DNA from: a virus
Direction: 5' to 3' (one strand)
Virus record (IMG/VR): IMGVR_UViG_3300017749_000005
Span: 1 to 64,000 of that record
Length of the DNA stretch: 64,000 nt
The translations under genes were made by a program, and so were the position numbers. The notes under the pieces are model-generated. The model did not search any database and was not told the origin of the DNA. It was given only the letters and a program-made list of their open reading frames with translations. Positions 1-61,019 of this stretch are shown in pieces (position 1 is the stretch's first letter; the number at the start of each line of letters is the position of its first letter).

Positions 1-1
1 T

Positions 2-1211: not shown

Positions 1212-1504
1212 GTAAATCAGAATTTTCAAAGATAGAGTTTAGAGATCCAGTCGTAAGACGAGTGGTAGAGAAATTTGTAGACAGATCAAATGTAGGGTTT
1301 GCTAAGTATGGTAGATCATTAGATGGTGAAAGAAGAGGTGGTCATAAAGACTTAGTTGGTTATCTAAATGATATACAAGAAGAGTTAATGGATGCAGTGC
1401 TATACATACAGGCTGCACGTGAGGAACTATCTGATCTTCGTGAAGATGAACTTGTTCGTAAGCTAAAAGAAAATTATGGCGAAGAAGCGATATTCGAAGA
1501 TTAG
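1208..1504 (+). CDS. Small all-alpha (MazG-like) nucleotide pyrophosphohydrolase-like protein
   Basis: 98 aa with an ATGA start/stop overlap to the upstream gene. The pattern FAKYG...LNDIQEELMDAVLYI resembles short phage MazG-like proteins. The functional call is weak. Confidence 0.4.
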   Translation: MSKSEFSKIEFRDPVVRRVVEKFVDRSNVGFAKYGRSLDGERRGGHKDLVGYLNDIQEELMDAVLYIQAAREELSDLREDELVRKLKENYGEEAIFED

Positions 1505-2890: not shown

Positions 2891-2902
2891 ACAAACATAT
2901 AT

Positions 2903-27790: not shown

Positions 27791-29233
27791 TTATTTAATT
27801 AACATGAAGTTATTAGCCCCTTGAGTAACCAAACATCTTTCAGAGAGGTAATGTACTTCCATTACATCTTTTCCAGAAGTTTGTGCTCCAACAGAACCAG
27901 TAACCCAAGTCTTAAGTTTACGGTCATCGGTCTCAGAAGATCTATAACGAACATGCAAGAAAGGACGTTTTAAATTCTTTCCTAGTTGCTCATCATAAAC
28001 AGTAGAAGTACCAGCTGGTACAATTACACCACGAATAGCACCTGTGCCAGAGTTTGCATTAATAAATCCTCTAGTTCCCTTGTCATTCAAATACTTCCAA
28101 TCAGTCTTATAAAAATCATAAGATCCTCTACGGAAACCTGAAAAACCAAGATTTAATGCCATGTCTTCAGAGTTATCAAAAACTCCAAAAGAAGTGCCAT
28201 TAGCAACGTGAGCATTTACTCCACCTAACATGTCATCAACTAAAAGTGCTGTTGATCGGTTCAAGAACATCATATTCTCTTCAATAGCACCTTGTGAATC
28301 AAAAGTAGCTAAAATAGAATCAAAATTACCTAAATTAGCTGCAGCTGATCCACTTCCAGTATTATTTACGTCAGTAGTCACATGGCCACGAGCTGTAATA
28401 GCAGCAAATAATCCTTCAGTACCACTTTCTCCAGCGCCTTTATCAGTACCACCGATTGCTCCGGCAGTTACATCATTTAGCTCACTTTCCATCATAGACA
28501 TTTCAAGATAATCAGCAAACCTAGCTCTAGTATCACCTTCAGCTTTCAAGTACCATAAGTATCCTGACTGACCTTCTTCTCCAGTAACCTCAACCCAACC
28601 AATGGCTGATGTATCAGAACCAGAAACTTCATAGAAGTCCTTCATAATAAGATGCTTATTTGAATAACTCTTAAACTGAGGAGCATTAGCTGAATCTCTT
28701 CCATCTGTTCCTTTATTAAATTCAGAACCAAATACTAATAGATGAACGACAGCACTATCAGCAAAAGCAGATCCAGTACCTAAATTTGCTATTCCGTAAG
28801 GAAGAACAGTTATTCTTGCAGCACCTGCAGTTCTAACTGAAACATAAGCTTTTATAGTTATGTTACCATCAGAAATCATTACTGTATCACCCACTCTAAT
28901 ACCGTGATCAGTTGTTACACCGTTTCCATCTACGTCGTGTGTGATATCTATTGTATTACCAGCTGCGGATACTACTGCTGCTTTATAAGCCAAGTGTAGT
29001 CTACCTTGCTCTGACCAGACTACACTGTCTGACTGCGAGGCTTCTTCAGCTCCAATCTGAGATAAAAATCCAGAAATTGTCCTTTTTCCATAAATCTCAG
29101 CTTCTTTTTCCATTAAATCTGGTAGGTACTGTTGTTCCCAACCAGTTGAACCATCTGTGAAATCAAGATAGTTAGTTGATAGTGTTTGTTTGCGTGGTGC
29201 CGCGTCGGGCCCAGCTGCGCTTGTTATTGACAT
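27791..29233 (-). CDS. Major capsid protein
   Basis: 480 aa, directly after the scaffold-like gene in the order terL-portal-scaffold-capsid. Local GC and codon quality are higher than in neighbours, and a terminator follows. Confidence 0.75.
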   Translation of the reverse strand: MSITSAAGPDAAPRKQTLSTNYLDFTDGSTGWEQQYLPDLMEKEAEIYGKRTISGFLSQIGAEEASQSDSVVWSEQGRLHLAYKAAVVSAAGNTIDITHDVDGNGVTTDHGIRVGDTVMISDGNITIKAYVSVRTAGAARITVLPYGIANLGTGSAFADSAVVHLLVFGSEFNKGTDGRDSANAPQFKSYSNKHLIMKDFYEVSGSDTSAIGWVEVTGEEGQSGYLWYLKAEGDTRARFADYLEMSMMESELNDVTAGAIGGTDKGAGESGTEGLFAAITARGHVTTDVNNTGSGSAAANLGNFDSILATFDSQGAIEENMMFLNRSTALLVDDMLGGVNAHVANGTSFGVFDNSEDMALNLGFSGFRRGSYDFYKTDWKYLNDKGTRGFINANSGTGAIRGVIVPAGTSTVYDEQLGKNLKRPFLHVRYRSSETDDRKLKTWVTGSVGAQTSGKDVMEVHYLSERCLVTQGANNFMLIK

Positions 29234-35189: not shown

Positions 35190-35467
35190 TATTTAGACCT
35201 CCTTTCAGCAAAGCCACCAAACGATACATCCTTATCTGTATCAACAGGTACTTTATTTTCTAATATATTCTCTTCCTCTTGTATTCTATTAAGTATTTCA
35301 AATGCATCAAAGATAGCTAGTTTCTTAGTCGCTGCTGCATTCTTTAGTCTATCAGCAGATATATCGTCATCTGAATCAACTATTGCCTCCTTGGCTACCT
35401 TAATTAATTCCTCAACTGCTACTTGCCCAGCTTGGATTATATTCCTCTTCGTTTCCTTGATATTCAT
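35189..35467 (-). CDS. 92-aa helical protein directly upstream of terL (small-terminase candidate, weak)
   Basis: Its stop overlaps the terL start. The protein is helical and acidic. The assignment is positional only. Confidence 0.3.
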   Translation of the reverse strand: MNIKETKRNIIQAGQVAVEELIKVAKEAIVDSDDDISADRLKNAAATKKLAIFDAFEILNRIQEEENILENKVPVDTDKDVSFGGFAERRSK

Positions 35468-36017
35468 ATTTGATTGAAATAAAATTAGTCATAACTCTGT
35501 ATAGTCTTTCACCATCTATTACAAATTCATATTCACTGTTAGGTAGAAATCCTACAAGATCACCATTGTTTATACCGTAACTAATTAACTCATCGTTAGT
35601 TAGTTTCATAACACCTGTTAATGGTTTCTCCTTATCAATATCAAATTTACCGTCTTGATGTATGGGCTTTACAAAGCAAAACCCTTTTATAGCGTACCAC
35701 TTATTATTTCTTTTGTAAGAAAAGATTTGATCCTCCCTAACACAATAAGTGTTTTCATCTAGAAAACTTCTACTATTTTTTTCTTCACCGTGCACGTTAT
35801 GCCATCTTCTAAATACGTTATGATGAACTATAATCTCATCACCTACTTGTAATTCAGTTTCTATAGCTAATGGTAAATGTTTTATAACTGCTTCTCTACT
35901 AACGTATTGATGATTAAAAATCTCTGTATTTAATACAAGTTCTTTATCACCAACTTTCTTAGTGTTGTTGTATCTAGTATTCTTTGGTTCGATTATAAAA
36001 TCATAAATACTCTTCAT
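35412..36017 (-). CDS. Hypothetical 201-aa protein
   Basis: Tightly coupled ORF of unknown function. Confidence 0.5.
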   Translation of the reverse strand: MKSIYDFIIEPKNTRYNNTKKVGDKELVLNTEIFNHQYVSREAVIKHLPLAIETELQVGDEIIVHHNVFRRWHNVHGEEKNSRSFLDENTYCVREDQIFSYKRNNKWYAIKGFCFVKPIHQDGKFDIDKEKPLTGVMKLTNDELISYGINNGDLVGFLPNSEYEFVIDGERLYRVMTNFISIKYEYQGNEEEYNPSWASSS

Positions 36018-36526: not shown

Positions 36527-36859
36527 TTACACACCAATTGTTTTTGTTACTACTGTTGGCGTGATTTTCTCTGCTATCTGAGCATTGATGCTATTTCTAA
36601 TAGATTCAACTTGCTCATCACCGAGTGCTGTTTGCACCCAAGCAATTACATCTTCTTCAGTTATATCAGCGAAAGCTGTAAAGGTACTCAAATCCTCAGT
36701 ATCTAAAGAGACTACTCCATAAGAATCTCCTGTATTCTTATCTTCCGTATCATCAACACCAGTTAGTCTCCAGTGTACATTAAAGATTACGTCTGCTTTA
36801 TCATCCTTCTTAGGATATGTATCAACTGTTTTACAGTTCCATGTATATGCTATCACCAT
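36527..36859 (-). CDS. Member 3 of a tandem triplicated small-protein family
   Basis: Trimmed to the ATG at 36859 (MVIAYTWNCK). It shares YTW..., FTAFADITEEDVIAWV and PTVV with the two upstream paralogues. Confidence 0.6.
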   Translation of the reverse strand: MVIAYTWNCKTVDTYPKKDDKADVIFNVHWRLTGVDDTEDKNTGDSYGVVSLDTEDLSTFTAFADITEEDVIAWVQTALGDEQVESIRNSINAQIAEKITPTVVTKTIGV

Positions 36860-36869
36860 TGTTTTTTGT

Positions 36870-37214
36870 TTAAATTTCATCCTCACCACCCCAAGGATTT
36901 GATTTTACTACTGTTGGTGGATTTTTTTGTGTTTTTATTTGAGAGGCTATATCAGCCTTAATGCTTACTAAGTCTAACTTTGGTTCTACCCAAGCCGTAA
37001 CTTGTTCTTCAGTTAAGTCAGCAAATGATGTAAATGAATCAGAGCTAGGTGCGTTAATTTCTACTGCACCTATAGCATATCCATGAAAATCTTCGCTATC
37101 AATAGTCTCTTTGCCAGTATACATATAGTGAATAATTTTCACTACATCTTGTAAGTCACCCTCTGTAGGTGCTGCATCGATATTTTTTATTGATAATTCG
37201 TATGATATAGCCAT
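36870..37214 (-). CDS. Member 2 of a tandem triplicated small-protein family
   Basis: 114 aa with DSFTSFADLTEEQVTAWV..KNPPTVV. Confidence 0.6.
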   Translation of the reverse strand: MAISYELSIKNIDAAPTEGDLQDVVKIIHYMYTGKETIDSEDFHGYAIGAVEINAPSSDSFTSFADLTEEQVTAWVEPKLDLVSIKADIASQIKTQKNPPTVVKSNPWGGEDEI

Positions 37215-37215
37215 A

Positions 37216-37578
37216 TTAATCTGTTTCTGGTCTAGGTGCTTCGTCCAAATCTTCCTCCTTTACCCAAGTAGGTGTATAATCATCGCTCTTAGGTGCTTTT
37301 TTATCTTCAATAATTTTTGCAATCATCTCTTGCATATGATCTACAGGATGATTTGCTTTTGCCCATTCAATTATTTCAGCCTCCGTTAATTTATCTATAG
37401 CTATGAAGCTATCTGAATTAGGTGCTCCAACTGGAACTGCTCCATCAAAAACTCCCTCGTTCCCATCAGAATCAACTCCCTTGTATTTAAACTTAATTCC
37501 TGTTACGACATCATCTAATCCATTTAGCGATGGTGCTTTTTTAAGTCCTGTTATAGTCCATGTATATGTTGTTGCCAT
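37216..37578 (-). CDS. Member 1 of a tandem triplicated small-protein family
   Basis: 120 aa with YTWTITGLKK...DSFIAIDKLTEAEIIEWA. Confidence 0.6.
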   Translation of the reverse strand: MATTYTWTITGLKKAPSLNGLDDVVTGIKFKYKGVDSDGNEGVFDGAVPVGAPNSDSFIAIDKLTEAEIIEWAKANHPVDHMQEMIAKIIEDKKAPKSDDYTPTWVKEEDLDEAPRPETD

Positions 37579-44798: not shown

Positions 44799-45992
44799 TT
44801 ATGCTACTTTGATTATAAGCACTCTAATATCATTACTTGTTGGTGCTACTGCAAAACTTACAGTAACAACATTAGTGCTTGTTCTAACTACATCAGCAAT
44901 AACAGTGTCGTGAGTGCTATTGTCGTACAACTGAACAATAACAGATTCTGTACCCAGATTATGAGTTACAGTATATGATGCGTTTGAACCATCACCTATA
45001 TCTGTGGCAAACGTGTGATTACTTAATGAAGAAACAGTACCAGTAACATCTCCAGTAACATCTCCAGTAACGTCTCCAGTTAAATCACCAGTTACATTTC
45101 CCGTTAAGTTACCTGTTACGTTTCCAGTTACGTTTCCAGTTACATTTCCCGTTACGTTTCCAGTATGGACTCCGCTTGTGTTACCAGTTATATTACCAGT
45201 AACGTTACCTGTTAAATTTCCTGTAACATCACCTGTTACATCCCCTGTTATATTACCAGTAACATCTCCAGTGACATCACCAGTTAAGTTACCATGAAAT
45301 GACGTAGCTTGTAAAGGTTTATTAGCTGTTAACTTTGATGTAGAGTTTATCCAAGTAAACGTAGGTGTAGTGCCTGAACTCCAAGCACCAAAAGTCAATC
45401 CTGCCCCATCTGCGGCAGATGCTGTTGTTGCATTTTTACCTACAGTAATATTTAAATCTTCAACATCTAATGTTGCTGTGTTTAAAGTTGTTGTAGTTCC
45501 AGAAACAGTTAAGTTTCCATCAACAATAACACTTCCTCTAAAATTAACTATATCACCTGCATCAGCACCTATAGTTATAGTTTCATCTGCTGATCCACTT
45601 GAAGATTCAAGACTATTTAACAAACTTAATATATCTGAGTTGGCAACAGTTACTTCAACTGTGTTGGCTGTACCATGACCTAATGTTATACCACTTCCTC
45701 CAGTTATAGTAAAAGTTGGAGTTTTAGGTACTCCATCTTCATTTAAAGTTAAAACACCATTTGAACTACTAAAAGAATAAGTTGCACCTACTTTTATGAA
45801 AGTGCTACCATTGTATATTTTAAGTTTATTTTCACTAGTATTGTAATAAACTTGACCAACTTGAAAAGCTGAGCCAATACCATCATTAGCTGATGGATTA
45901 CTAGATCTTGGATGAATTACTGAATTGTTTATAAAAGACTTTTCTACGGAATTTCCATTTAAGTCTATATTAGATAAATATTTTAACGCCAT
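44799..45992 (-). CDS. Fibre-like protein containing 21 tandem G-[DN]-[VLI]-T tetrapeptide repeats
   Basis: 397 aa. The N-terminus MALKYLSNIDLNGN is similar in style to neighbouring fibre N-termini. The repeat block is GNLTGDVTGDVTGNIT...GDVTGDVTG. Confidence 0.65.
   Translation of the reverse strand: MALKYLSNIDLNGNSVEKSFINNSVIHPRSSNPSANDGIGSAFQVGQVYYNTSENKLKIYNGSTFIKVGATYSFSSSNGVLTLNEDGVPKTPTFTITGGSGITLGHGTANTVEVTVANSDILSLLNSLESSSGSADETITIGADAGDIVNFRGSVIVDGNLTVSGTTTTLNTATLDVEDLNITVGKNATTASAADGAGLTFGAWSSGTTPTFTWINSTSKLTANKPLQATSFHGNLTGDVTGDVTGNITGDVTGDVTGNLTGNVTGNITGNTSGVHTGNVTGNVTGNVTGNVTGNLTGNVTGDLTGDVTGDVTGDVTGTVSSLSNHTFATDIGDGSNASYTVTHNLGTESVIVQLYDNSTHDTVIADVVRTSTNVVTVSFAVAPTSNDIRVLIIKVA
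45042..45293 (-). repeat. 21 tandem copies of a 12-bp in-frame repeat (coding for GxVT)
   Basis: Read directly from the sequence: AGTAACATCTCC / AGTTACGTTTCC variants run head to tail, with two degenerate units (GNTS, GVHT) in the middle. Confidence 0.9.
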
Positions 45993-45998
45993 ATTCTT

Positions 45999-46727
45999 TT
46001 AGTTTATATAAGCAACACCTCTTATAGGTGAAGCAAATTTTATAGTTAATTGATTAATGCTATTGTATGTAACTTCACCAATAACTAAATCACCGTCTAC
46101 TTCGTTAGCAGTAGGGTCGCATTCCACTATTGAAACGCTTGGATACTTACCCATGTTGTGATTAACTGTCCACGTATTGCTAGAAGAGCTCTGAGTGTGG
46201 AGTATGTTTTTATCACCGGCTGAAAGTACACTAATTGAATATGATTTTAAATTATTTAAATTTCCGTTGCTACTAGCGTGAGTTAATGATAAATCATAAA
46301 AATTAGTTTCGCTAGAATCTTGAGTTATTGCTGTTACGTTATAAACGCCAAACTGATCTTGATCTTCTGTATCAGCTATTATTACATTAGCATCTAAAAA
46401 AGTGTTTATGAAGTTTACAGCAGGGTTATCAAAACCGTTAGGAAATTTACTTATTTTTACTGTTGTTATACTGGATAAAGCCACAACAGAAGCTCCACCA
46501 GAACTAAAACTTATAGTACCAGGTTGTCTAAAACCCGTACCGTTAAATGAGTTATCATGATAAACATAAACAATTTGACCTCCTACACCACCAGAATTTG
46601 TAGCTCGAAGATATTTACTTATATCACTAAGCTGAAAATTCTTCGTAGCACCTCCAGAATTAGATCCTATAAACTTATCTGTTTTTTCTACAGTAGTATC
46701 ACTTACATAGGTTGATATTCTAGCCAT
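45999..46727 (-). CDS. 242-aa fibre-module protein sharing the MARISTY N-terminal domain with 51057..53696
   Basis: The N-terminus MARISTYVSDTTVEKTDKFIGSNSGG..KNFQLSDISKYL aligns with MARISTYIRDIEISADDIVIGSEYNG..KNYRMSDLQEFF of the 879-aa fibre. Confidence 0.6.
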   Translation of the reverse strand: MARISTYVSDTTVEKTDKFIGSNSGGATKNFQLSDISKYLRATNSGGVGGQIVYVYHDNSFNGTGFRQPGTISFSSGGASVVALSSITTVKISKFPNGFDNPAVNFINTFLDANVIIADTEDQDQFGVYNVTAITQDSSETNFYDLSLTHASSNGNLNNLKSYSISVLSAGDKNILHTQSSSSNTWTVNHNMGKYPSVSIVECDPTANEVDGDLVIGEVTYNSINQLTIKFASPIRGVAYIN

Positions 46728-46733
46728 TTAGTT

Positions 46734-47180
46734 TTATTTTGCGCTTGTTCCGTAATAATAAGCAAAGATGTTACTTATAACAACACCTTCTACCATACCC
46801 ATAAGATGAACAAACAAATCGTTATCAGTTACAGTAGGTACATACACAACCGCATATATTATAAAAGCAAATGACATTAAACCAACTATTCCGGTTAATG
46901 TCATCATAAAGTCTTTCTTGCCAGTTTTAGCAACTTCTATTTCCCTATTTCTAGCAGAGTCTCTATCAGCTACTTCTAGTTTATACATTTCAGCGTGTTG
47001 CTTGTGTAATACTTTTTTATCTTCAACAGATATCTTAGGATCACTATCTATCATTTTACCTACCATACTAAGTACTCCAGCATCTGGTAATAGATCACCT
47101 GCAACATCCAATATCTTAGGTGCTAAACTTTTCAGCAATCCACCTAATTTAGTATCTTTAAATTTTTTCTTTTCGCTCAT
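46734..47180 (-). CDS. Membrane protein, holin candidate (amphipathic N-terminus plus two C-terminal TM helices)
   Basis: 148 aa. The TM segments are LTGIVGLMSFAFIIYAVVYV and MGMVEGVVISNIFAYYY. The layout is reminiscent of 3TM/GTA-type holins. It is coupled by an ATGA overlap to the upstream gene. Confidence 0.4.
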   Translation of the reverse strand: MSEKKKFKDTKLGGLLKSLAPKILDVAGDLLPDAGVLSMVGKMIDSDPKISVEDKKVLHKQHAEMYKLEVADRDSARNREIEVAKTGKKDFMMTLTGIVGLMSFAFIIYAVVYVPTVTDNDLFVHLMGMVEGVVISNIFAYYYGTSAK

Positions 47181-47617
47181 CTATCTTTGTCTTTTATCAT
47201 ATCATCTATGGCTTTATTCATAACCTTATCTGTATATGATTTATTTTTATGAAAAACACTTCTATCTGAAAAAGGTAAGTCTTCCTCTGCTAAAAGTATC
47301 CTGTAAATTCTACTTATCACTTGACTGCATTTAAATGAAGTTTTAAATATACTATACTTTATAGTAGTTCTATTACGTTGTCTCCATACTTCAATCCAGC
47401 CTTGCCGCTTTAACCTTTCCCACCGATGCTTATCCCACGTATAAGTATAAATACCATCCATAAACTCATTACGAGTAAATCTACCTTTACAGTCTAAATA
47501 TATAAGTAACTCTAAATCAGCGTCTTTTAAACCATAAGTCTTACAAGCCCATTTTCTAACAAGCCTATAATACTTAAGTAAATTAATTTCACGTATATCT
47601 GATGAGTTTAACTTCAT
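47177..47617 (-). CDS. Hypothetical 146-aa protein (possible winged-helix)
   Basis: Coupled by ATGA overlaps on both sides (groES upstream, TM protein downstream). No firm motif. Confidence 0.45.
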   Translation of the reverse strand: MKLNSSDIREINLLKYYRLVRKWACKTYGLKDADLELLIYLDCKGRFTRNEFMDGIYTYTWDKHRWERLKRQGWIEVWRQRNRTTIKYSIFKTSFKCSQVISRIYRILLAEEDLPFSDRSVFHKNKSYTDKVMNKAIDDMIKDKDR

Positions 47618-47871
47618 TCAACTAAAACAACGTCCGATATTTTTATTACTTTATATAACTTGTCTTTATAGTCAATACCGTGACCCGCATGCTTATCGTA
47701 GAATACGATATCGGATTTTTCAATACCTTCTACCTTATCTCCACAACTTATTATTCTAGCTTTAATGTATCTATTATCTACATCTGTTTTTTCAGTAAAT
47801 ATAAGTCCAGCAATTTTTTTTTGCTTTTCTTTTATATCATCTACTATAAGGTAATAATTAATCGCTTTCAT
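47614..47871 (-). CDS. groES: Co-chaperonin GroES (Cpn10) homologue
   Basis: 85 aa. YYLIVDDIKEKQKKIAGLIF..ARIISCGDKV..SDIVFYDKHAG..YKVIKISDVVLV follows the Cpn10 pattern (mobile-loop region, then the VGD-type hairpin). It overlaps the groEL stop by 14 nt. Confidence 0.75.
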   Translation of the reverse strand: MKAINYYLIVDDIKEKQKKIAGLIFTEKTDVDNRYIKARIISCGDKVEGIEKSDIVFYDKHAGHGIDYKDKLYKVIKISDVVLVE

Positions 47872-49420
47872 TTGTCCTCATGTTAGATATAACACAATCA
47901 GCAGATACAATAGTAGACACTACGCTTAAAGCATTTTTTAATGCAGTTTTAGTAACAAGCACTGGGTCTATAATACCAGCCTTTATCATATTTACTGGTT
48001 TACCAGATACTACATCTATGCCAAATCCTTTTTTAACAGAAGTTACAGAGTCTGAGATACCAGCATTATCTAATATCGTGTAGTGAGGAGCCTTGATAGA
48101 CTCAAGTATAATTCTTTCGCCCTCGTTATCATGTGCTATACACTGTGATGCATTAAGCAATGCTACACCTCCACCAGCAACAATTCCTTCTTTCAAAGCC
48201 GCTTTAACTGCATATATTGCGTCTTCAACTCTATCTTTTTTTTCTTTTAATTCAACCTTAGAGTCAGCACCTACTTTTATGATTCCTACTGAACCTGATA
48301 GCATCGCTAATCTTTGATCTAACTTCTTTTTAATAAAACCGTTCTTTTCTTTTTTAATTAAAGATTTAACTTGTTCTACTCTTTCTTTTACATCTAAGTC
48401 TTGCAAAGTTGTAATAACTGTTGACTTATTATCAGTTACAGCTTTATTAATTCTACCTAGTACGCTAGGATCTATAAAGTCCATATCATCGCCAAGTTCC
48501 TCATTAATGACCTTGGCGCCAGTCAAGAAAGCTAAATCATCAATAGTATCTTGCTTAGTAGGTCCAAAGCCTGGTAAATCAACAATATTAACATTAATAT
48601 TACCTTTAACTTTATTCATAAGTAAAGCAGACTTTACCTGCTGATCTACTTGAGCCACTATCAATAAACTCTTATTACCTTTTATAATGAACTCTAAGAC
48701 ATTTTGTATCTTTCTTATGTTACTTATCTCTGATGAGACAATTAACACCATAGGGTTATCTAAAACAGCCCTCTGCTTGTCTTTGTCAGTTATGAAGTGT
48801 GGGGATGTTAATGGACTTTCAAATTGTATTCCGTCTACAACTTCCACGTAGGTTTGATCTGTTTCAGATTCTTCCATAAGTACAACACCATCTGCTCCAA
48901 CCTTATTGTATGCTTCGGATATTATACCACCTAATATAGGGTCGTTGTTACAAGATATAGATGCAACGCTATTTAGCATTGAATCTTTAACTTTTATACA
49001 CTCGTCATCTAAATATTTATTTATTTTAGATAGACCTGTGTTCATGCCATTTTTAATATCTCTTATAGAGATATTATTATCAGCGTCATTGACGTTATGT
49101 AATAGTGATTCAGCAAGGACGATGGCAGTTGTTGTGCCATCCCCTGCTTCTTTCACTGTGTTTCTAGAAGCCTCTTTAATTAGAGTTGCTCCTATATTTT
49201 CCACTGGATCAAACAAGACAACCGATTCTGCTACGGTTACTCCGTCTTTTGTGATCACTGGATTTCCTCTTGCATCCTCGTAAATTACGCATTTACCAGA
49301 AGCACCAAGTGTGGACTTAACTGCTTTAGCAAGTTTATCCACCCCGGTTGATATTCTATTTTTAGCTTGGTCGCCAAAGTTTAAATCCTTGACGATTTCG
49401 CTAGGTTGATTATATTCCAT
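47858..49420 (-). CDS. groEL: Chaperonin GroEL (Cpn60) homologue, lacking the C-terminal GGM tail
   Basis: 520 aa. VKDLNFGDQAKNRISTGVDKLAKAVKSTLGASGKCVI...PVITKDGVTVAESV...EAGDGTTTAIVLAESL is collinear with the canonical GroEL equatorial domain, including the ATP-binding DGTTT. Confidence 0.9.
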   Translation of the reverse strand: MEYNQPSEIVKDLNFGDQAKNRISTGVDKLAKAVKSTLGASGKCVIYEDARGNPVITKDGVTVAESVVLFDPVENIGATLIKEASRNTVKEAGDGTTTAIVLAESLLHNVNDADNNISIRDIKNGMNTGLSKINKYLDDECIKVKDSMLNSVASISCNNDPILGGIISEAYNKVGADGVVLMEESETDQTYVEVVDGIQFESPLTSPHFITDKDKQRAVLDNPMVLIVSSEISNIRKIQNVLEFIIKGNKSLLIVAQVDQQVKSALLMNKVKGNINVNIVDLPGFGPTKQDTIDDLAFLTGAKVINEELGDDMDFIDPSVLGRINKAVTDNKSTVITTLQDLDVKERVEQVKSLIKKEKNGFIKKKLDQRLAMLSGSVGIIKVGADSKVELKEKKDRVEDAIYAVKAALKEGIVAGGGVALLNASQCIAHDNEGERIILESIKAPHYTILDNAGISDSVTSVKKGFGIDVVSGKPVNMIKAGIIDPVLVTKTALKNALSVVSTIVSADCVISNMRTNESD

Positions 49421-49460
49421 TAAATTATATTAAATTAAATTGATTATTTGTTATTATATT

Positions 49461-49844
49461 TTATTTATCTCCGTATTTAGATGAGTATAAAAAATCTCCT
49501 TTAGATGCAGTACCAGATGCAGTACCAACAAGCTTTTTAGTTTTACCAGCTAGATTTGAAGCTTTAGTTTGTTTTCTCTTAAGCTTACCTGCTTTTTTTG
49601 CTTTTAATCCACCACCTGCTCTAGTTGCATTACTAGCAGTAATACCGTCTACTTTAGATTGTGCCCTAGTTGTTCTTTTTTTAGTTCTTTTGATCTTTTT
49701 AGAATTATCTACGGTTCTAACTTTAGTACCATCAGCTAGTGTTGTTTTTGTAACTCTTTTTTTCTTAGGTGCAGTTTTACTTATTTTTTGTCCATCTACA
49801 ACAGTTGTTGTTGTCCTTGCTTTTTTTGAATTTTTTCTAGGCAT
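49461..49844 (-). CDS. 127-aa extremely basic K/T/R-rich protein (histone-H1-like composition)
   Basis: Low-complexity basic sequence (KKARTTTT..KKKRVTKTT..KRTKKRTTRAQSK..KAKKAGKLKRKQTK). Confidence 0.55.
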   Translation of the reverse strand: MPRKNSKKARTTTTVVDGQKISKTAPKKKRVTKTTLADGTKVRTVDNSKKIKRTKKRTTRAQSKVDGITASNATRAGGGLKAKKAGKLKRKQTKASNLAGKTKKLVGTASGTASKGDFLYSSKYGDK

Positions 49845-49861
49845 TTTTTTATTTTTAAGTT

Positions 49862-49936
49862 TTATTTCTTTTTACTTTTCTTTTTTTTAGGTGGTCTACC
49901 TTTTTTAGTTCCGTATGTACCTTTTCCACTTGGCAT
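49862..49936 (-). CDS. Possible 24-aa basic peptide MPSGKGTYGTKKGRPPKKKKSKKK
   Basis: An ATG-to-TAA ORF fills the gap between 49948.. and ..49844, and its composition matches the neighbouring basic protein. It is very short, so speculative. Confidence 0.25.
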   Translation of the reverse strand: MPSGKGTYGTKKGRPPKKKKSKKK

Positions 49937-49947
49937 AATATTATTAT

Positions 49948-50250
49948 TTAAAATGTTTTAACTACTTTAGGGCCTTCTAAAAAAGAAAGCTTTTTCTTAT
50001 AATGCTCGATACTACCATCAATAGCAGCTTCAGCACTCTCCATTGTTTCTCTTCTTGTTACATCATGCCAAAACTTATCGTTCTGCATATCTTTATACTC
50101 GGTTTGATAAAATCCATTAGGTAGCTGAACTATCCTCCAGTTTGACTTGTCTGAAATGTACTCCAGCTGCTCTTTAACAGTTTCATCGGTCATTTGTGTT
50201 TGTTGGTTATTGCTCCATGTATTGGTGCTATAGTGTATTGCGTATGTCAT
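49948..50250 (-). CDS. Hypothetical 100-aa protein
   Basis: A clean ORF with normal composition. No motif. Confidence 0.5.
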   Translation of the reverse strand: MTYAIHYSTNTWSNNQQTQMTDETVKEQLEYISDKSNWRIVQLPNGFYQTEYKDMQNDKFWHDVTRRETMESAEAAIDGSIEHYKKKLSFLEGPKVVKTF

Positions 50251-50326
50251 TGTTTTATTGGTTTTAAATTAGGTCCTGCAATATTGCAAGGTTTCTTAGA
50301 GTATAGTTACACACTCATTTAGTTTT

Positions 50327-51055
50327 TTAACCTTCAGTTATATCTAATTGAAATGTGTCACCATCAGCAACTCTCATATTACTGAAACTAAATGTTTTAG
50401 AAAACGTTTGTCCCATACTAAAAGTATAAACACCTCTAGTATTGCTAAGGGTTCTTATTGGATTACCATCAGTATTACTTGTTCCACCATTATGCCCTAT
50501 AGTACCTCCAGAAACATTTAAAACAACATCTCCAGCATCATTAACTTGATTATTACTATTAGTGCTAGAGTCAGCCATTCTTGTTACTGTTATTGTTCCG
50601 CCTCCGGTTATGCTCTCATAGATATTTCTTCTAGAAGCAGAAGTATATCCACAACCAAATAAACAACTAGTATTTGGACCAATAGTTACGGTCTTATTAA
50701 GATATCCAGCTATGTCTAAAAAAACTTGCCAGGTCAATGTTTGGTAACCAGTAGTTCCAAAATGACCTATTAAGTTTCCACTACCAAAGTTTGAAGCACC
50801 ATATACCGATGATGAACCAGCAGGGTAACCTCTATACTGAGATGCTTTGGTTACTTGATTTAAGTTTGTTATAGTTTGACCTGCATATATAGGTTCAAAT
50901 TTAGCTGGGGTTGATAAAGATATTATTTGAGTAAATGTATTAGCACCATTTATTTGTACATTAGCTCCAGCTGCTTTTACAGCTCCTTGTATAGTTGTAT
51001 CGTCACTAGCTCCAAACATTTCAAAATCAGTATTTTCATCAGTAGGTACACCCAT
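50327..51055 (-). CDS. 242-aa fibre-associated protein
   Basis: It starts 2 nt after the stop of the 879-aa fibre gene. The sequence is G/S/T/N-rich and beta-like. Confidence 0.5.
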   Translation of the reverse strand: MGVPTDENTDFEMFGASDDTTIQGAVKAAGANVQINGANTFTQIISLSTPAKFEPIYAGQTITNLNQVTKASQYRGYPAGSSSVYGASNFGSGNLIGHFGTTGYQTLTWQVFLDIAGYLNKTVTIGPNTSCLFGCGYTSASRRNIYESITGGGTITVTRMADSSTNSNNQVNDAGDVVLNVSGGTIGHNGGTSNTDGNPIRTLSNTRGVYTFSMGQTFSKTFSFSNMRVADGDTFQLDITEG

Positions 51056-51056
51056 A

Positions 51057-53696
51057 TTACTTAAGTTTTTCTTCTATTGCTATTAATCTTTCCTCTAACT
51101 CTAGTATTGCTTTATGCATATGAGCAACAACGCCTCTATCACTCATAGATAAATAACCTTCATTATTTTCATAAACTGTATGAGGTATTGCTTCTCTAAC
51201 TTCTTGTGCTATAAAACCAGATTCTTTTTCACCGCTTTTAATATAGTTATAAGATGTAAATTGTTTTATAACATTTAAACCTTCTTTAATAGGTTTTATT
51301 TCTGACTTAAGCCTTTTATCAGAGGATATTTTAAAGTTATCAGCAGTAACATCCCCACTGGAAAGGGTTATATCACCACTAGAGAGGGTTATATCACCAC
51401 TAGAAAGTGTTATATCCCCATTAGAAACGGTCATATTACCATTCGTACCAAAAATAAAATCACCGGTATTACCTCCACTACTTACAATTTCAAAGTTTCT
51501 ACTAGAACTAGCTGAACCTGTTTGGTTGTATGAGTAAATTCTATTAGCACCTCCAGCAACACCTATAACTACTGAGCCTCCAGTTCCATTAGTCATGGTT
51601 GATCTAATTTCAAAATAATTACCTGAAGTGTTTCCACTTTGACTAAATATAGATCTAGTATTTATAACACTTGTTGTGCCTATAGATATTTGTTTTACAG
51701 AAAGAGTGTTTGAGCTAGGATTAAAAAATATACTACTACTAGTACTTGAATCTCTGCTTAAAGCATTTGCAGCACTATTGAAAAAAGGTATTTGAAAAAA
51801 ACTGTTTGCGGTGGTTGATGTTACATCTAAACTAAAAACTGTTCCAGCTAAATCAACGCCTGAATTAGCAGAGTAAGTAGTGTTTGTATCTGTTGATGCT
51901 ATTGTTATGTTATCAGCATCCGTGTGAGTTAATGTTATATTAGATCCTGCAACAAATTTTATGTCATCACTTCCACTTCCTGCACCACCCGTTGTGTTTC
52001 TTAAAATTATATCGTTATTACTATCTACGAATGATAATGTTGTAGTGTTTTGAGTATTATCATTAGCTGTCATATCATCAACAGCTAAATCTATAGTTCC
52101 ATCACCATCTTGGTAAGTTACTGAAATTCTAGTTTCAGTATTATTACTAAACATTGCACCTACTATATCTTGAACTGCTTCTGTTGATAACTGACTGTCA
52201 GTCCATGGTACATTAATAACTGCTTGGTTATTACTATTTAATTGTAGTCCATATGTTCTTCCAGCAACAGATGTTGCTGCGTTAGCAGCATTGTTTAAGT
52301 TTGTGTCGTATCTTAGTTCAATACCACCTCTTATACTACTGGTGGCAATAGGTAGTGTATAAGTCCCTGGAGGAGTAGCCCATTGATTGTCACCTCTCAG
52401 AAATGTTGACGAATTAGGTGTTCCTCCAGCAGATAAATCAGGAGCTATGGTTACGGAACCAGTTACAGCACTAAGAGCTGATAATGAAACAAAAGTGCCA
52501 TTTGATGATGTTATTGATGTTTGGACTACTTCAGCCCAAGTAGCATCTCCTCTTAAAAATTTAAGCTCTTCATTTACAGCTGGTGCAGGAACTACTCCTA
52601 CTGAACCAGCAGTGTTTTCTGAAGTATCAGCACCTCCGAATGTTGGTAGTGTTCTTTTAGTTATTTCAGTAACATGACCGTACGCGTCAGAGACAAATGT
52701 GTGTAAAACATCTACAGCATTCGTAGTTATAGATTTTGCTGTATATTCATCATGACTAATTGTTATAGTGTCATCAGCAGTTATTATAGAGCTTATAGGT
52801 ACCGATGCAAGTATGTTTAATGTATCTAAAGCTGTACCACTAGTACTATGTATATCTATAGATGTTGTGAAAGCGGGATTGCCCACAGCAGGATTATTAG
52901 TACTATCAGCTGCTATATTAAATTTATAGTCAGGTAATATATATGTGTGTATCTGCTCCTTTATTACGTGACCCTTAGCATCACTTATCACAGCATCTGT
53001 TGTAGTGGTTACACCATTACTATCAGTATTTGAAACAGGTGCTGCTGCCTTGAAAGTACTGTCGTCTTCCAACTGTTTGTTAGGCGAAATAGATGCATTA
53101 GTTCTAGATACATCATTGTGATATATAGAAACTTTATCAGCAGCTGAATCTAAGCTTAATGTACTTATCCATGCATCTCCACCACTAATAGTTAGTGTTT
53201 GTTCAAAGTTTATTGTCTGGGATTGACTATCTACAGAGCCACTACCACTGTGATTAACACTCGCATCACCAATAACATTAAAACTATACTCTTCAGGCAT
53301 AGTAAATTCAGTTAAAGTGTAATTAGTTAAATGACCAGTAGTGTTAGTAGTTACACTGGTTATAGCACTAAATATATGAGGTGTGTTACTAGTTGTACCA
53401 TTACCATAATTATCTTTAGCATATAAAATAATTCCAGGATTTGGATCTTGTTTAGTTAGTAGTTGTGCGGCGTGTTCCCAGTTTCTATGCCCATCTTCAG
53501 AATCAATTCCTATAACTATAGGTGATGATGCTGTAAAATCTCCACCACCAAAAAACTCCTGCAAGTCAGACATGCGATAATTCTTAGTAGTGTATACAGG
53601 TCTATTACTAGAATCTGTACCATTATATTCAGAACCTATGACTATATCATCAGCCGATATTTCTATATCCCTTATATATGTACTAATTCTTGCCAT
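51057..53696 (-). CDS. Tail fibre protein with C-terminal S74-type intramolecular chaperone domain
   Basis: 879 aa with the MARISTY N-terminal domain and two FLRGDxxWA motifs typical of fibres. The repeat SGDITLS occurs three times. The C-terminus is SDKRLKSEI...SGFIAQEVREAIPHTV...coiled coil. Confidence 0.8.
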   Translation of the reverse strand: MARISTYIRDIEISADDIVIGSEYNGTDSSNRPVYTTKNYRMSDLQEFFGGGDFTASSPIVIGIDSEDGHRNWEHAAQLLTKQDPNPGIILYAKDNYGNGTTSNTPHIFSAITSVTTNTTGHLTNYTLTEFTMPEEYSFNVIGDASVNHSGSGSVDSQSQTINFEQTLTISGGDAWISTLSLDSAADKVSIYHNDVSRTNASISPNKQLEDDSTFKAAAPVSNTDSNGVTTTTDAVISDAKGHVIKEQIHTYILPDYKFNIAADSTNNPAVGNPAFTTSIDIHSTSGTALDTLNILASVPISSIITADDTITISHDEYTAKSITTNAVDVLHTFVSDAYGHVTEITKRTLPTFGGADTSENTAGSVGVVPAPAVNEELKFLRGDATWAEVVQTSITSSNGTFVSLSALSAVTGSVTIAPDLSAGGTPNSSTFLRGDNQWATPPGTYTLPIATSSIRGGIELRYDTNLNNAANAATSVAGRTYGLQLNSNNQAVINVPWTDSQLSTEAVQDIVGAMFSNNTETRISVTYQDGDGTIDLAVDDMTANDNTQNTTTLSFVDSNNDIILRNTTGGAGSGSDDIKFVAGSNITLTHTDADNITIASTDTNTTYSANSGVDLAGTVFSLDVTSTTANSFFQIPFFNSAANALSRDSSTSSSIFFNPSSNTLSVKQISIGTTSVINTRSIFSQSGNTSGNYFEIRSTMTNGTGGSVVIGVAGGANRIYSYNQTGSASSSRNFEIVSSGGNTGDFIFGTNGNMTVSNGDITLSSGDITLSSGDITLSSGDVTADNFKISSDKRLKSEIKPIKEGLNVIKQFTSYNYIKSGEKESGFIAQEVREAIPHTVYENNEGYLSMSDRGVVAHMHKAILELEERLIAIEEKLK
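51345..51419 (-). repeat. Three and a half tandem 21-bp in-frame repeats (GDITLSS heptapeptide)
   Basis: Read directly from the sequence: GGTGATATAACCCTCTCTAGT-type units just upstream of the IMC domain. Confidence 0.85.
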
Positions 53697-53807
53697 TTAC
53701 TCTTTTTTATCGTTAATCATAACATGTAAAGCAGATATACCCGCTAGCAACACTATCAATATTGTTATTAAGGCAATAAAATCACCTGTATTCATTAAAG
53801 CTGTCAT
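53697..53807 (-). CDS. 36-aa single-TM mini-protein MTALMNTGDFIALITILIVLLAGISALHVMINDKKE
   Basis: Below the track cutoff. It exactly fills the gap: its start is 6 nt after the upstream stop, and its stop abuts the fibre ATG. Confidence 0.5.
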   Translation of the reverse strand: MTALMNTGDFIALITILIVLLAGISALHVMINDKKE

Positions 53808-53812
53808 TTTTA

Positions 53813-54088
53813 TTAAGTTTTTTTCATAATTTTAGTGCTAAAACCCTCTTTTTTAGTCCCTTTTCCATCGTTTCCACGATTAGCCTTAACACTTTTAAAT
53901 TTATTGTCCTTATGGTCGTAGTCCTTACCCTTCATAGATGGATTATCTCGATGCTTTTTCTGTGAATCAGCCTTTTTAGCACGCCGATCAGCCCTCATTG
54001 CCCTCTTCTTGTCACGTACCTTCTTAGCAGCCGCAGCCTTAGCACTTAGCTTTTGCTTAGGACCACCCTTTTTCTTAGGTTTTGCCAT
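53813..54088 (-). CDS. 91-aa highly basic protein; first gene of the leftward module
   Basis: Trimmed to the ATG at 54088 (MAKPKKKGGPKQKLSAKAAAAKKVRDKKR...). The track extension begins at a TTG inside the palindromic element. Confidence 0.6.
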   Translation of the reverse strand: MAKPKKKGGPKQKLSAKAAAAKKVRDKKRAMRADRRAKKADSQKKHRDNPSMKGKDYDHKDNKFKSVKANRGNDGKGTKKEGFSTKIMKKT

Positions 54089-54149
54089 AATGTTTTTACC
54101 TTTTTGTCTATAAGATACTATTACATGGAAATAACTGTTATTAATACAG

Positions 54150-54195
54150 TGTGACAATAGCCCCTTACTCTATACTATAACTACCTAATGTCACA
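54150..54195. promoter_or_regulatory. Palindromic element copy 1 (TGTGACAATAG-N24-CTAATGTCACA)
   Basis: It has terminal inverted repeats TGTGACA/TGTCACA plus TAG/CTA, and the internal sequence is about 80% identical between copies. It sits at the divergence point of the leftward and rightward modules. Confidence 0.7.
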
Positions 54196-54416
54196 GTTTA
54201 GAAATATAGGGATTTTGTATTATACCTACATTATTAAATTTACAAAGCAAAACACAAACTCTTTTTATTTACCCCACCCCCACCTACATTTCACATTTTT
54301 CATTATATTTTTTTGCGTTTACCCTTTACACCACACTACACAACAGCTACTACTATATAATTTACTTATAACTTTTTATCTTTTTTCCTCTCTTATGTAT
54401 AGCATTTTTATATTTT

Positions 54417-60913: not shown

Positions 60914-61001
60914 TGTAAGGTGGTGGAATTGGCAGACACGCTACCCTATCTCGGTAGTAGTAACATATGTTACTTTGGAGGTTCGAATCCTCCTCTTACA
61001 G
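60914..61001 (+). tRNA. Class-II (long variable arm) tRNA-like gene with a non-canonical anticodon loop
   Basis: Hand-folded cloverleaf. Acceptor stem TGTAAGG/TCTTACA. D arm GTG-GAATTGGCAGA-CAC (Leu-like). Anticodon stem CTACC/GGTAG with loop CTATCTC. Variable arm GTAAC-ATAT-GTTAC. T arm GGAGG-TTCGAAT-CCTCC. No CCA is encoded. Confidence 0.7.
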
Positions 61002-61019
61002 CAATTTAAATTAAAAGTT

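Follow-up and report, generated by a model that had tools for sequence, protein, structure and literature searches.

A GroEL–GroES pair in reversed order in an uncultured marine phage related to Cellulophaga phi38:1 and the Flavobacterium 'elemo' phages

The phage represented by the IMG/VR record IMGVR_UViG_3300017749_000005 very probably encodes a group I chaperonin system of its own, and this system very probably belongs to the already described 'GroEL>GroES' type of the virioplankton. Viral chaperonins show that some phages are independent of the protein-folding machinery of the host, and the stretch analysed here, positions 1–64,000 of the record (hereafter the window), contains a clean, complete example of a concept that was published in 2017 and that is annotated in cultured phages. 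Within the region studied (46,734–49,420), the genes for GroEL and GroES are followed by two smaller genes, denoted p146 and p148; these genes and the other relevant features of the window are listed in Table 1.

Table 1. Features of the window that are discussed in the text, with their positions in the window.
Feature	Coordinates	Strand	Basis
GroEL (group I chaperonin, Cpn60), 520 aa	47858..49420	−	PF00118, phrog_5725, NF000592, NF009487
GroES (Cpn10 co-chaperonin), 85 aa	47614..47871	−	Pfam Cpn10, phrog_3188
GroES start / GroEL 3' end overlap, 14 nt	47858..47871	−	read from sequence
p146, 146 aa, predicted MarR-like winged helix-turn-helix	47177..47617	−	AF2 model and Foldseek
p148, 148 aa, two C-terminal TM segments	46734..47180	−	hydropathy
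127-aa lysine/arginine-rich ORF between p100 and GroEL	49461..49844	−	composition
p100, 100-aa conserved ORF without assigned function	49948..50250	−	synteny
p201, 201 aa, predicted tandem Cpn10 fold, before TerL in the head/packaging module	35412..36017	−	phrog_13932, AF2 and Foldseek
480-aa structural protein of the head module (probably the major capsid protein)	27791..29233	−	phrog_13704

The positions, lengths and shared strand of the four ORFs of the region agree with the original prediction, and so do their junctions. GroES is located immediately 3' of GroEL, and this reversed order, seen in the window, is kept in 79 of the 80 related loci from IMG/VR. The 14-nt overlap between the two genes (ATGAAAGCGATTAA), as well as the ATGA junctions that link GroES to p146 and p146 to p148, can be read directly in the sequence. 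The GroEL/GroES overlap is present in all of the intact related loci (79 of 79), with a length of 14 nt at 37 of them, 17 nt at 39 and just 1 nt at the remaining three; it is the sole conserved overlap of the gene chain (79 of the 80 IMG/VR relatives), and the translation of GroES is probably coupled to that of GroEL through it.

The two genes also move together. When the window is compared with one relative (L007), the nucleotide identity is mostly 65–85% over GroEL and GroES and ~95% from the GroES/p146 junction onward, and the protein encoded by p100, on the upstream side, is 99% identical. The junction of GroES with p146 is precisely where the recombination breakpoint falls, and GroEL and GroES recombine together as a cassette. 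The comparison of GroEL and GroES phylogenies that had been proposed along with the original prediction gives a compatible picture, with the same lineages grouped in both trees.

Tail-fibre-like genes are found on both sides of the chaperonin region of the window, and TerL, the portal and the 480-aa head-module protein are encoded downstream, on the same strand as the chaperonin pair. The claim that the pair resides within a virion module, between fibre clusters, is accurate for the window, where the pair lies among late and structural genes, but does not extend to most of the relatives, in which the 11-kb fibre block is missing and 1.4–4.7 kb separate the pair from p201–TerL on its downstream side. 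The siting between fibre clusters is specific to the sub-lineage of the window.

The 520-aa protein was confirmed as a GroEL homologue by the match to Cpn60_TCP1 (PF00118; E = 1e-51, 176.7 bits compared with the cut-off of 34.3, covering residues 30–513 of 520), the match to phrog_5725 (E = 1.5e-131), and scores above the cut-offs of two NCBIfam GroEL subfamilies (NF000592, 452.4 against 397; NF009487, 451.8 against 352). The equivalog model of the housekeeping bacterial GroEL, TIGR02348, was missed (444.9 bits against 582.1), so that the protein represents a divergent viral subfamily rather than an orthologue of the cellular GroEL. In the PDB, the best match is to an ancestral chaperonin of the FCB group, 9rwr (E = 3e-109); for comparison, E. 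coli GroEL is matched with E = 1e-93 and gp146 of Pseudomonas phage EL (6tmt) with E = 1.7e-24. The sequence identity does not exceed 40% (about 36–40%) to E. coli or any bacterial or cultured-phage GroEL tested, and in the genomes of 185,579 species, only one fragment was matched, as befits a gene that belongs to a viral lineage.

Despite this divergence, the phage GroEL is apparently functional, as far as can be judged from its sequence. The DGTTT motif of the ATP site is intact (D94–T98), and the search for inactivating substitutions in this site turned up none: the counterparts of E. coli D52, D87-G-T-T-T91, D398, G414-G-G416 and D495 are all present and invariant in 79 related viral GroELs, a set whose members differ by up to ~30%. 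The changes that are fixed in the clade (P33A, K34S, R36K, N479D/N and A480V) all map to non-catalytic contacts, and the dN/dS of 0.08–0.21 corresponds to purifying selection. As had also been predicted, the C-terminus (...NMRTNESD) lacks the GGM repeats; additionally, most of the acidic residues of the cavity wall are absent.

The apical groove, scored at the positions of E. coli Y199, Y203, F204, L234, L237, L259, V263 and V264, remains hydrophobic or aromatic-like at six of the eight (L, F, L, L, M, and H in place of Y203), and the remaining two carry polar substitutions, L234Q and L259K, that are fixed in the clade. In E. coli, L234 and L259 are essential for the binding of both polypeptide and GroES, and therefore, with polar residues at these positions, either kind of binding may work differently in the phage protein; the groove changes suggest specificity for a particular lid. 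The inter-ring contacts (K105, A109, E434, R452, E461, S463 and V464) are unlike those of E. coli and vary within the clade, the position of E434 being deleted; because these residues are not conserved, a canonical back-to-back double heptameric ring is not assured.

The assignment of the 85-aa protein to Cpn10, on which the original prediction hinged, passed the profile search, with 25.0 bits for Pfam Cpn10 (PF00166), above the gathering cut-off of 21.1, along with a match of phrog_3188 (E = 3e-10). All 15 GroES sequences of the clade match Cpn10 and no other family (best E = 5e-10), and the ten best PDB matches of a profile built from the clade only are all Cpn10, Cpn20 or GroES structures (best E = 1.9e-7). 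In NCBIfam, all eight matches to the protein are GroES models, each scoring below its own cut-off. At the sequence level, the GroEL-binding mobile loop, i.e. Gly followed by three hydrophobic residues, is retained: A21-G22-L23-I24-F25-T26, which takes the form G-L-I-F/M-T in the clade, aligns with E. coli G24-I-V-L-T, and all 15 aligned sequences of the clade share G22, L23 and T26. The roof β-hairpin is missing owing to a 9-residue deletion at the position of the E. coli hairpin, and the Cpn10s of the uncultured phage MW202828 and of phi38:1 have the same deletion; this hairpin is not needed for the co-chaperonin function. The gene is under purifying selection (dN/dS of 0.06–0.16).

Phage-encoded pairs of this kind have been characterized in viromes. 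Marine et al. (2017; ISME J 11:2479; PMC5649160) detected a co-chaperonin on 133 of the 337 GroEL-bearing virome contigs, in the GroEL>GroES order on 70 of the 133, and defined two 'GroEL>GroES' clades. The virioplankton operons that they described combine this order with a roofless GroES, a recurrent downstream ORF homologous to a protein of the Oxic3_1 fosmid, and Cellulophaga-podovirus-like structural genes; the roof deletion was reported for the co-chaperonins of the GroEL>GroES viromes and for T4 gp31. The window has the same reversed order, roofless GroES, Gly and hydrophobic residues in the mobile loop, Cellulophaga-podovirus-like structural genes and marine origin, and a recurrent downstream ORF (p146) that may correspond to theirs, without any essential difference, where the likeness is to the description in that paper rather than to its sequences. 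The pair is thus an ordinary member of a published type. The original prediction had considered the presence of both partners in one phage uncommon, a view contradicted by the 133 of 337 contigs and by genome annotations, in which the two are listed together for the cultured Flavobacterium phages elemoB and immuto and Cellulophaga phi38:1, as well as for the uncultured MW202828.1. Nishimura et al. (2017) placed such genomes among putative Flavobacteriaceae phages. To PMC5649160, the present analysis adds exact figures for the overlap, the recombination of the pair in the manner of a cassette, the prediction of p146 as MarR-like and the second, tandem Cpn10-fold gene; the cassette exchange, the groove changes, the MarR-like neighbour and the tandem gene are leads that can be tested in cultured Flavobacterium and Cellulophaga phages.

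The TerL and the 480-aa head protein of the window match those of MW202828, Flavobacterium elemo, Cellulophaga phi38:1 and Calle, Maribacter Panino, and Tenacibaculum phages. By sequence similarity, the source is a marine, podovirus-like phage that has not been cultured and that shares its lineage with Cellulophaga phi38:1 and Flavobacterium 'elemo', and its host is probably a member of Flavobacteriia, an assignment made solely from the similarity to cultured phages. With >8000 metagenomic homologues of one head-module gene and >4400 of the 146-aa gene, this phage belongs to a group of very high abundance in the ocean.

Among GenBank genomes, ctfjg026 (uncultured Caudoviricetes sp., MW202828.1) is the nearest in both TerL (63%) and head protein (46%). 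As in the window, its groEL overlaps the Cpn10 gene that comes after it, and homologues of p146 (annotated as 'repressor protein') and of p201 are present, but its GroEL is only 37% identical and the repressor-like gene is convergent. The contrast between 37% identity for GroEL and 63% for TerL implies that the chaperonin cassette has either diverged rapidly or been replaced. In elemoB (vB_FspP_elemoB_14-3B, Elemovirus, NC_062741), gp45 GroEL is likewise followed by an overlapping 83-aa gp46 GroES, a layout that is annotated in RefSeq; gp47, the homologue of p146, adjoins GroES, and gp32, a ~180-aa 'co-chaperonin GroES', directly precedes TerL and the portal. The differences are the low identity (36% for GroEL and 27% for GroES), the overlap of 1 nt compared with 14 in the window, the convergent orientation of the p146 homologue and the lack of large fibre genes flanking the pair.

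If GroEL and GroES operate as a self-contained system, they would form a ring-plus-lid folding chamber, the volume of which could be enlarged by the loss of the roof hairpin and the C-terminal tail, in analogy to T4 gp31–GroEL. The altered groove (L234Q, L259K and Y203H) might make the phage GroEL dependent on its own GroES, and the clients would be late proteins of large size, the 480-aa head protein and the fibres among them. T4 gp31 and RB49 CocO resemble the window GroES as phage Cpn10-fold co-chaperonins without the roof hairpin, and in the case of T4, the roofless lid is thought to enlarge the chamber for the ~50–56 kDa capsid protein gp23. T4, however, contributes no more than the lid and relies on the GroEL of its host, whereas the window phage brings both the ring and the lid; the lid-only type was rejected for the window because a full-length GroEL adjoins GroES. 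The 480-aa protein matches phrog_13704 ('head and packaging'; E = 1.5e-101), is encoded after the portal and a scaffold-sized ORF, and, from this position, is probably the major capsid protein. Its designation as the capsid protein in the original prediction stands insofar as it is a structural protein of the head module and a plausible chaperonin client, but the annotation in the relatives goes no further than 'structural protein'.

The window encodes a second co-chaperonin-like protein, p201, that the original prediction did not include. This protein matches phrog_13932 ('co-chaperonin GroES'; E = 1.5e-22), and its AF2 model, of moderate quality (pLDDT 70), has the tandem Cpn20 7ekq_R as the best Foldseek match in the PDB (E = 6.9e-5, TM 0.57, 205 columns), followed by Cpn10, GroES and gp31; in BFVD, it matches 'Chaperonin cpn10' of Cellulophaga phi18:3 (TM 0.69). 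Two Cpn10-fold domains are predicted in the p201 chain, at the level of predicted structure only, and chloroplast Cpn20 would be similar in having two such domains in a chain of ~200 aa. Unlike Cpn20, p201 has no detectable sequence family, is encoded in the terminase/head module and has homologues in phages outside the GroEL matches; it has no match in Pfam (PF00166 included) or NCBIfam, and hhalign gives only a 29% probability against the GroES of the clade. In each of the 44 relatives in which TerL was also detected, the gene closely precedes it, and the same module is seen in elemoB gp32 and phi19:3 gp101. Proteins of this type are labelled 'cpn10' in GenBank, and no paper analysing them as a double-domain lid was found.

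An extended system with three parts, namely a GroEL with a re-tuned apical groove (L234Q/L259K), the coupled roofless GroES and the tandem p201, the latter contributing to a mixed lid or hijacking the host GroEL in a gp31-like manner, is unlikely; were it real, the head and fibre proteins of the phage would be folded along two parallel routes. The narrower proposal, that p201 and the 85-aa GroES assemble into a mixed seven-domain lid in the style of Cpn20/Cpn10, or that p201 itself is the true lid, is quite unlikely. It draws on the match of the p201 model to the tandem Cpn20 over the full length, on a largely invariant loop, 'GDKELVLNT', that resembles a mobile loop and occurs in the N-domain only, and on the co-occurrence of p201 with GroEL>GroES across the lineage. 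However, p201 is separated from GroEL by ~11 kb in the window, the structural and profile matches are of the limited quality given above, and genes of this type, at the same position before TerL, are present in Cellulophaga phi19:3/phi18:3-type phages that are not among the 269 GroEL-bearing records, which links p201 with the head/packaging module and possibly with the GroEL of the host.

Neither does the evidence favour a division of labour, in which the phage GroEL would act without a lid and the 85-aa GroES would redirect the host GroEL as gp31 does. The model for the former is gp146 of Pseudomonas phage EL (6tmt), a phage-encoded GroEL homologue that works without a co-chaperonin (PMC7185714). 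The groove that differs from that of E. coli, the unusual inter-ring contacts and the gp31-like roofless GroES are all compatible with such an arrangement, but the overlap in 79 of 79 loci, the exchange of the genes as a cassette, the grouping of the same lineages in both trees and the large distance from EL gp146, compared with the far closer E. coli GroEL, render it very unlikely. The lid-less type was rejected for the window in view of the overlapping GroES and of the similarity to gp146 that reaches only E = 1.7e-24.

GroEL and GroES as a coupled, self-contained pair also fit the data better than a chained functional unit of four genes, GroEL–GroES–p146–p148, with the downstream genes as dedicated chaperonin partners. 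The 14-nt overlap and both ATGA junctions exist in the window, 78 of the 80 relatives carry p146 on the downstream side of the pair, and its homologues adjoin GroES in elemoB (gp47, E = 3e-10) and MW202828 ('repressor protein', E = 6e-22). The chaining to two more genes, correctly seen in the window, is nevertheless not conserved: just 3 of 76 relatives have p146 joined directly to GroES, the median gap being 476 nt (maximum 2253 nt), with other ORFs inserted; p148 was found in only 9 of 80; and the recombination breakpoint falls between GroES and p146. The elemoB and MW202828 homologues of p146 are encoded on the other strand, which precludes translational coupling in these phages. The AF2 model of p146 (pLDDT 74.5; topology α-α-α-α-β-hairpin-α) retrieves MarR-family regulators as all of the top 50 Foldseek matches in the PDB, with modest scores (E ~3e-3, TM ~0.47), and the prediction for this gene is a DNA-binding protein of the MarR-like winged-helix kind, possibly a regulator, rather than a chaperone component. 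The four-gene unit, largely refuted by comparative synteny, is accordingly given hardly any weight. The columns of an alignment of 20 p146 sequences are 94% identical on average. The gene would be a separately exchangeable, lineage-wide neighbour of the pair and not a part of the folding machine.

The least credible alternative, recent capture of a host groESL as an auxiliary gene serving host proteostasis rather than virion assembly, could appeal to the Bacteroidota-type (FCB ancestral) GroEL as the closest structure and to the broader role of viral chaperonins raised as a possibility by Marine et al. (PMC5649160), but is very unlikely in view of the lack of a close cellular homologue among the 185,579 species' genomes, of the identity of about 36–40% to any bacterial or cultured-phage GroEL tested, of the reversed order, roofless GroES and missing tail, which are traits of the viral lineage common to >134 viral contigs, and of the co-orientation of the pair with the late structural genes.

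The flanking genes differ in their conservation. The two transmembrane segments ascribed to p148 were recovered as hydrophobic stretches at residues 90–119 and 122–140; the protein belongs to no family in Pfam or NCBIfam, shows a weak tblastn match to a 'holin'-annotated region of phage DSL-LC04 (E = 2e-5, 28% identity) and is possibly holin-like. It is an accessory gene outside the conserved chaperonin module. On the other side, the 127-aa ORF, which has no family match in Pfam or PHROG and lacks a homologue at all 80 related loci, is specific to the window and strongly skewed in charge (38 K+R compared with 6 D+E). The gene next to it, p100, has no family match in Pfam, PHROG or NCBIfam, but is found upstream of GroEL in 73 of the 80 relatives, normally directly adjacent, and its dN/dS is 0.02–0.06.

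The window phage encodes a GroEL and, from an ATG 14 nt before the end of the GroEL gene (ATGAAAGCGATTAA), a GroES, followed by two more ORFs, p146 and p148 (window ORFs are named by length in amino acids). The ORF list exactly matches the coordinates originally predicted for these four genes, and direct reading of the minus strand confirms the GroES start and two ATGA overlaps, one shared by GroES and p146, the other by p146 and p148. The GroEL C-terminus (...NMRTNESD) is free of Gly-Gly-Met repeats, and p148 has two C-terminal hydrophobic segments, both as described before. A scan of positions 45900..54400 is uninformative on operon boundaries, with 31 sigma-70 promoters compared with 38.6 expected from shuffled sequence (the scan does not cover Bacteroidota promoters) and 4 intrinsic terminators compared with 3.4.

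Chaperonin-related genes and other features of the window
Feature	Position	Strand	Description
GroEL	47858..49420	−	520 aa; ORF list
GroES	47614..47871	−	85 aa; ORF list
p146	47177..47617	−	146 aa; ORF list
p148	46734..47180	−	148 aa; ORF list
p201	35412..36017	−	201 aa; predicted double (tandem) Cpn10 fold; followed closely by a 92-aa ORF and TerL (large terminase)
p127	49461..49844	−	127 aa; 38 K+R, 6 D+E
DUF7936 trio	36527..37578	−	three consecutive small paralogues, 120, 114 and 120 aa
Giant ORF	6025..13758	−	2577 aa
Giant ORF	17045..24961	−	2638 aa
tRNA-Asp	60914..61002	+	89 nt, anticodon ATC; ARAGORN
Left end	1..4603	+	MazG-like pyrophosphatase, ribonucleotide reductase small and large subunits

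The larger protein is a chaperonin, matching Pfam Cpn60_TCP1 (E 1e-51) and phrog_5725 'chaperonin groEL' (E 1.5e-131). It also exceeds the cut-offs of two NCBIfam models for GroEL subfamilies but not that of the housekeeping GroEL equivalog. Its top match among solved structures is the reconstructed ancestral chaperonin of Fibrobacteres–Chlorobi–Bacteroidetes (9rwr, E 3e-109), with E. coli GroEL at E ~1e-93; close kinship to the chaperonin of Pseudomonas phage EL, which works without a lid, can be dismissed (E 1.7e-24). The protein was aligned to E. coli GroEL, with 36.5% identity, and to 78 viral GroELs related to it. D52, D87-G-T-T-T91, D398, G414-G-G416 and D495, which belong to the catalytic and nucleotide sites, are invariant, and no inactivating substitution is found; the nucleotide pocket bears the clade-fixed changes P33A, K34S and R36K. 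Other parts of the molecule depart from E. coli: the apical binding groove is altered (L234Q, L259K, Y203H), the inter-subunit salt bridge R197–E386 is gone (S/K), and the acidic residues of the cavity wall (E252, D253, D359, D361, E363) are mostly lost. The inter-ring positions K105, A109, E434, R452, E461, S463 and V464 are not conserved and differ among the GroELs of the clade, a variability that may be compatible with either a single or a double ring.

The original prediction was to fail if profile searches did not classify the 85-aa protein as Cpn10, or if ATP-binding residues of GroEL bore inactivating substitutions; neither is the case, and Pfam, PHROG and clade-profile searches agree on Cpn10. 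The protein scores 25.0 bits with Pfam Cpn10 (gathering score 21.1) and matches phrog_3188 'co-chaperonin GroES', and as a single sequence it gives a weak match in the PDB (E 0.013). Because the Pfam margin is small, a profile was built from 15 viral clade members, with bacterial GroES left out; its ten best PDB matches are all co-chaperonin structures (best E 1.9e-7), and all 15 members match Cpn10 and no other Pfam family. The mobile-loop signature is kept (G22-L-I-F-T26, compared with G24-I-V-L-T28 in E. coli), and a 9-residue deletion occupies the site of the roof β-hairpin. Against close relatives, dN/dS (Nei–Gojobori) is 0.08–0.21 for GroEL and 0.06–0.16 for GroES, low values which indicate that both proteins are kept by selection.

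A phage with both partners had been called uncommon, a view that the literature and databases have overtaken; the inverted order, too, is already on record. Marine et al. 2017 (PMC5649160) found a co-chaperonin on 133 of 337 GroEL-bearing virome contigs, 70 of the 133 in GroEL>GroES order and forming two clades ('GroEL>GroES-1' and '-2'); 44 GroEL>GroES contigs have in common a downstream ORF of unknown function, the structural genes of such contigs resemble those of Cellulophaga podoviruses, and their GroES is without the roof hairpin, an absence that may make for a larger cavity, as with T4 gp31. Nishimura et al. 2017 (PMC5332604) grouped 78 environmental genomes, putatively of Flavobacteriaceae phages, with Cellulophaga phage phi38:1 and found GroEL in 36 of them. 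Among individual genomes, Flavobacterium phage vB_FspP_elemoB_14-3B (elemoB, NC_062741) has, in its RefSeq annotation, GroEL (gp45) and an overlapping 83-aa GroES (gp46), MW202828.1 (Uncultured Caudoviricetes sp. ctfjg026) has groEL and then an overlapping Cpn10, phi38:1 has the order Cpn10–ORF–GroEL, and the myovirus immuto has groES before groEL. The pair in the window is confirmed as observed and its interpretation is partly supported, but the GroEL>GroES type to which it belongs was already known.

Megablast of the region finds no match among GenBank phages, so that, judged by DNA, the phage lacks close relatives in culture. In IMG/VR, by contrast, GroELs 69–90% identical to that of the window occur on at least 134 viral contigs, and 80 loci were fetched for synteny counts. 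GroEL is followed by GroES in 79 of the 80, the exception being a truncated contig, and the two genes overlap by 14 nt (37 loci), 17 nt (39 loci) or 1 nt (3 loci); a 100-aa ORF (p100) lies upstream of the pair in 73 loci and p146 downstream in 78. By contrast, p146 directly abuts GroES in 3 of 76 loci (median gap 476 nt, maximum 2.25 kb), and p148 is found in 9 of 80. The conserved core therefore is p100–GroEL–GroES, and the translational chain to two more genes, real as both ATGA junctions are in the window, is a feature of a sub-lineage. The same holds for the position between two fibre clusters: p201 lies just upstream of TerL in every locus whose contig extends there, typically 1.4–4.7 kb beyond p146 in the relatives, against 11.2 kb in the window, which has an inserted block of fibre genes that most relatives lack. 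Two local variants were also seen. The extremely basic p127 is inserted between p100 and GroEL in the window and has no counterpart in the 80 related loci; in one IMG/VR relative (L071:2209..3936), a deletion has produced an in-frame fusion of the GroEL C-terminus with the part of GroES that starts near residue 25, so that the mobile loop is missing; this fusion is a defective variant or else an artefact of assembly.

Comparison with one relative, locus L007 (segment 5212..7499), delimits the unit that is exchanged. The flanking proteins p100, p146 and p148 are 99%, 96% and 99% identical (dS ≈ 0.23–0.26); GroEL and GroES are 75–76% identical (dS 1.1–1.5). Nucleotide identity in sliding windows is about 57–92% across the two chaperonin genes, mostly 65–85%. 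Precisely at the GroES/p146 junction (window position 47610) it rises to about 95%, a level that begins with the opening bases of p146. This junction is a recombination breakpoint, and GroEL and GroES are inherited and exchanged together within the phage group, apart from p146. A single conserved unit of four genes is rejected on this breakpoint together with the rarity of the direct GroES–p146 junction and of p148. The joint acquisition of the two chaperonins is answered only in part, by this exchange within the group; in small neighbor-joining trees the GroELs and GroESs of the podovirus lineage group alike, but at ~35% identity and with few taxa such agreement is not strong evidence.

The window TerL is 63% identical to that of MW202828.1 and 45% to those of Flavobacterium 'elemo' podoviruses, followed by Cellulophaga, Tenacibaculum and Maribacter phages, and, judging from TerL and the 480-aa head-module protein, the phage belongs to the phi38:1/elemo-like group of Flavobacteriia phages. 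Its GroEL is 33–40% identical to those of all these cultured relatives, about as much as to E. coli GroEL, compared with up to 63% for TerL, which implies much faster divergence or replacement of the chaperonin cassette than of the packaging genes. Bacterial and archaeal genomes, one for each of 185,579 species, were scanned for cellular donors or prophages, and the sole match to the GroEL clade is a fragment of 18 residues at the end of a contig of 3.4 kb (NZ_JAYQDQ010000165.1, L087, 'MAG: Vibrio sp.'); the clade is therefore viral, without a recent cellular donor or prophage copies. As evidence of a Vibrio host this contig was rejected, being most likely a viral contig mis-binned into the MAG.

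Neither Pfam nor NCBIfam has a match for p146, p148, p201, p100 or p127. Among the genes of the region, p146 is one of the most conserved (mean column identity 94% over 20 aligned sequences, dN/dS 0.04–0.10, more than 4400 metagenomic homologues). Its AF2 model has a winged-helix topology (pLDDT 74.5), and all 50 of its 50 best PDB matches are MarR-family regulators, with modest scores (E ~3e-3, TM ~0.47); p146 may plausibly be a regulator. Homologues (L085:1189..1881 and L001:5833..6309 among the positions compared) adjoin GroES in MW202828.1 ('repressor protein', E 6e-22), elemoB (gp47, E 3e-10) and Maribacter phage Panino, in all three on the opposite strand and convergent with GroES; the association of p146 with the chaperonins is therefore lineage-wide and not translational. 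The accessory two-TM protein p148 shows no more than a weak resemblance to a region that carries a 'holin' annotation.

A second gene with a predicted Cpn10 fold, p201, matches phrog_13932 'co-chaperonin GroES' (E 1.5e-22) and has more than 8000 metagenomic homologues. Since hhalign to GroES was only suggestive (29% probability), its structure was predicted; the AF2 model (pLDDT 70) best matches, over its full length, a tandem chloroplast-type Cpn20 (7ekq_R, E 7e-5, TM 0.57), then Cpn10, GroES and T4 gp31 structures and, among viral models, that of a 200-aa protein from Cellulophaga phage phi18:3, 'Chaperonin cpn10' (TM 0.69). The module also occurs in elemoB, where gp32, a 180-aa 'co-chaperonin GroES', directly precedes TerL, and in Cellulophaga phage phi19:3, which shares the window's order of a ~200-aa Cpn10-like protein (gp101), a ~95-aa ORF, TerL and portal. 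As phi19:3 is absent from the tblastn matches of GroEL, p201 belongs to the head/packaging module, independent of the phage GroEL. By analogy with gp31 it may act with host GroEL, it may join the 85-aa GroES in a mixed lid, or it may have another assembly role; a three-component chaperonin system including p201 is possible but not likely. Such tandem proteins are known by annotation, and a published analysis was not found.

The intact ATPase site, the retained mobile loop, the loss of the roof hairpin and GGM tail, the conserved overlap, purifying selection and co-exchange together suggest how the pair might work. Termination-reinitiation at the overlap would couple synthesis of GroES to that of GroEL, and the two would form a ring-plus-lid chamber with a larger, less acidic cavity. 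The apical changes could make the phage ring dependent on its own lid; such dependence would account for the presence of both partners. The clients would be large late proteins such as the head protein (480 aa, ~53 kDa) and the fibres, as T4 gp23 and gp31 suggest by analogy.

Several other features of the window deserve mention. The three DUF7936 paralogues (Pfam, E 1e-19 to 1e-25) have the fibre block on one side and the p201–TerL module on the other. The two giant ORFs follow downstream of the head genes; in PHROG, the longer (2638 aa) matches phrog_14478 'virion structural protein' (E 3e-125), and the shorter (2577 aa) matches nothing at E ≤ 1e-5. The single tRNA call seems doubtful or atypical, given its length and unusual anticodon. 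Near 4–5 kb, and a second time near 54–56 kb, the GC skew and the coding strand both switch; these two points bound one ~50-kb late-gene block on the minus strand.
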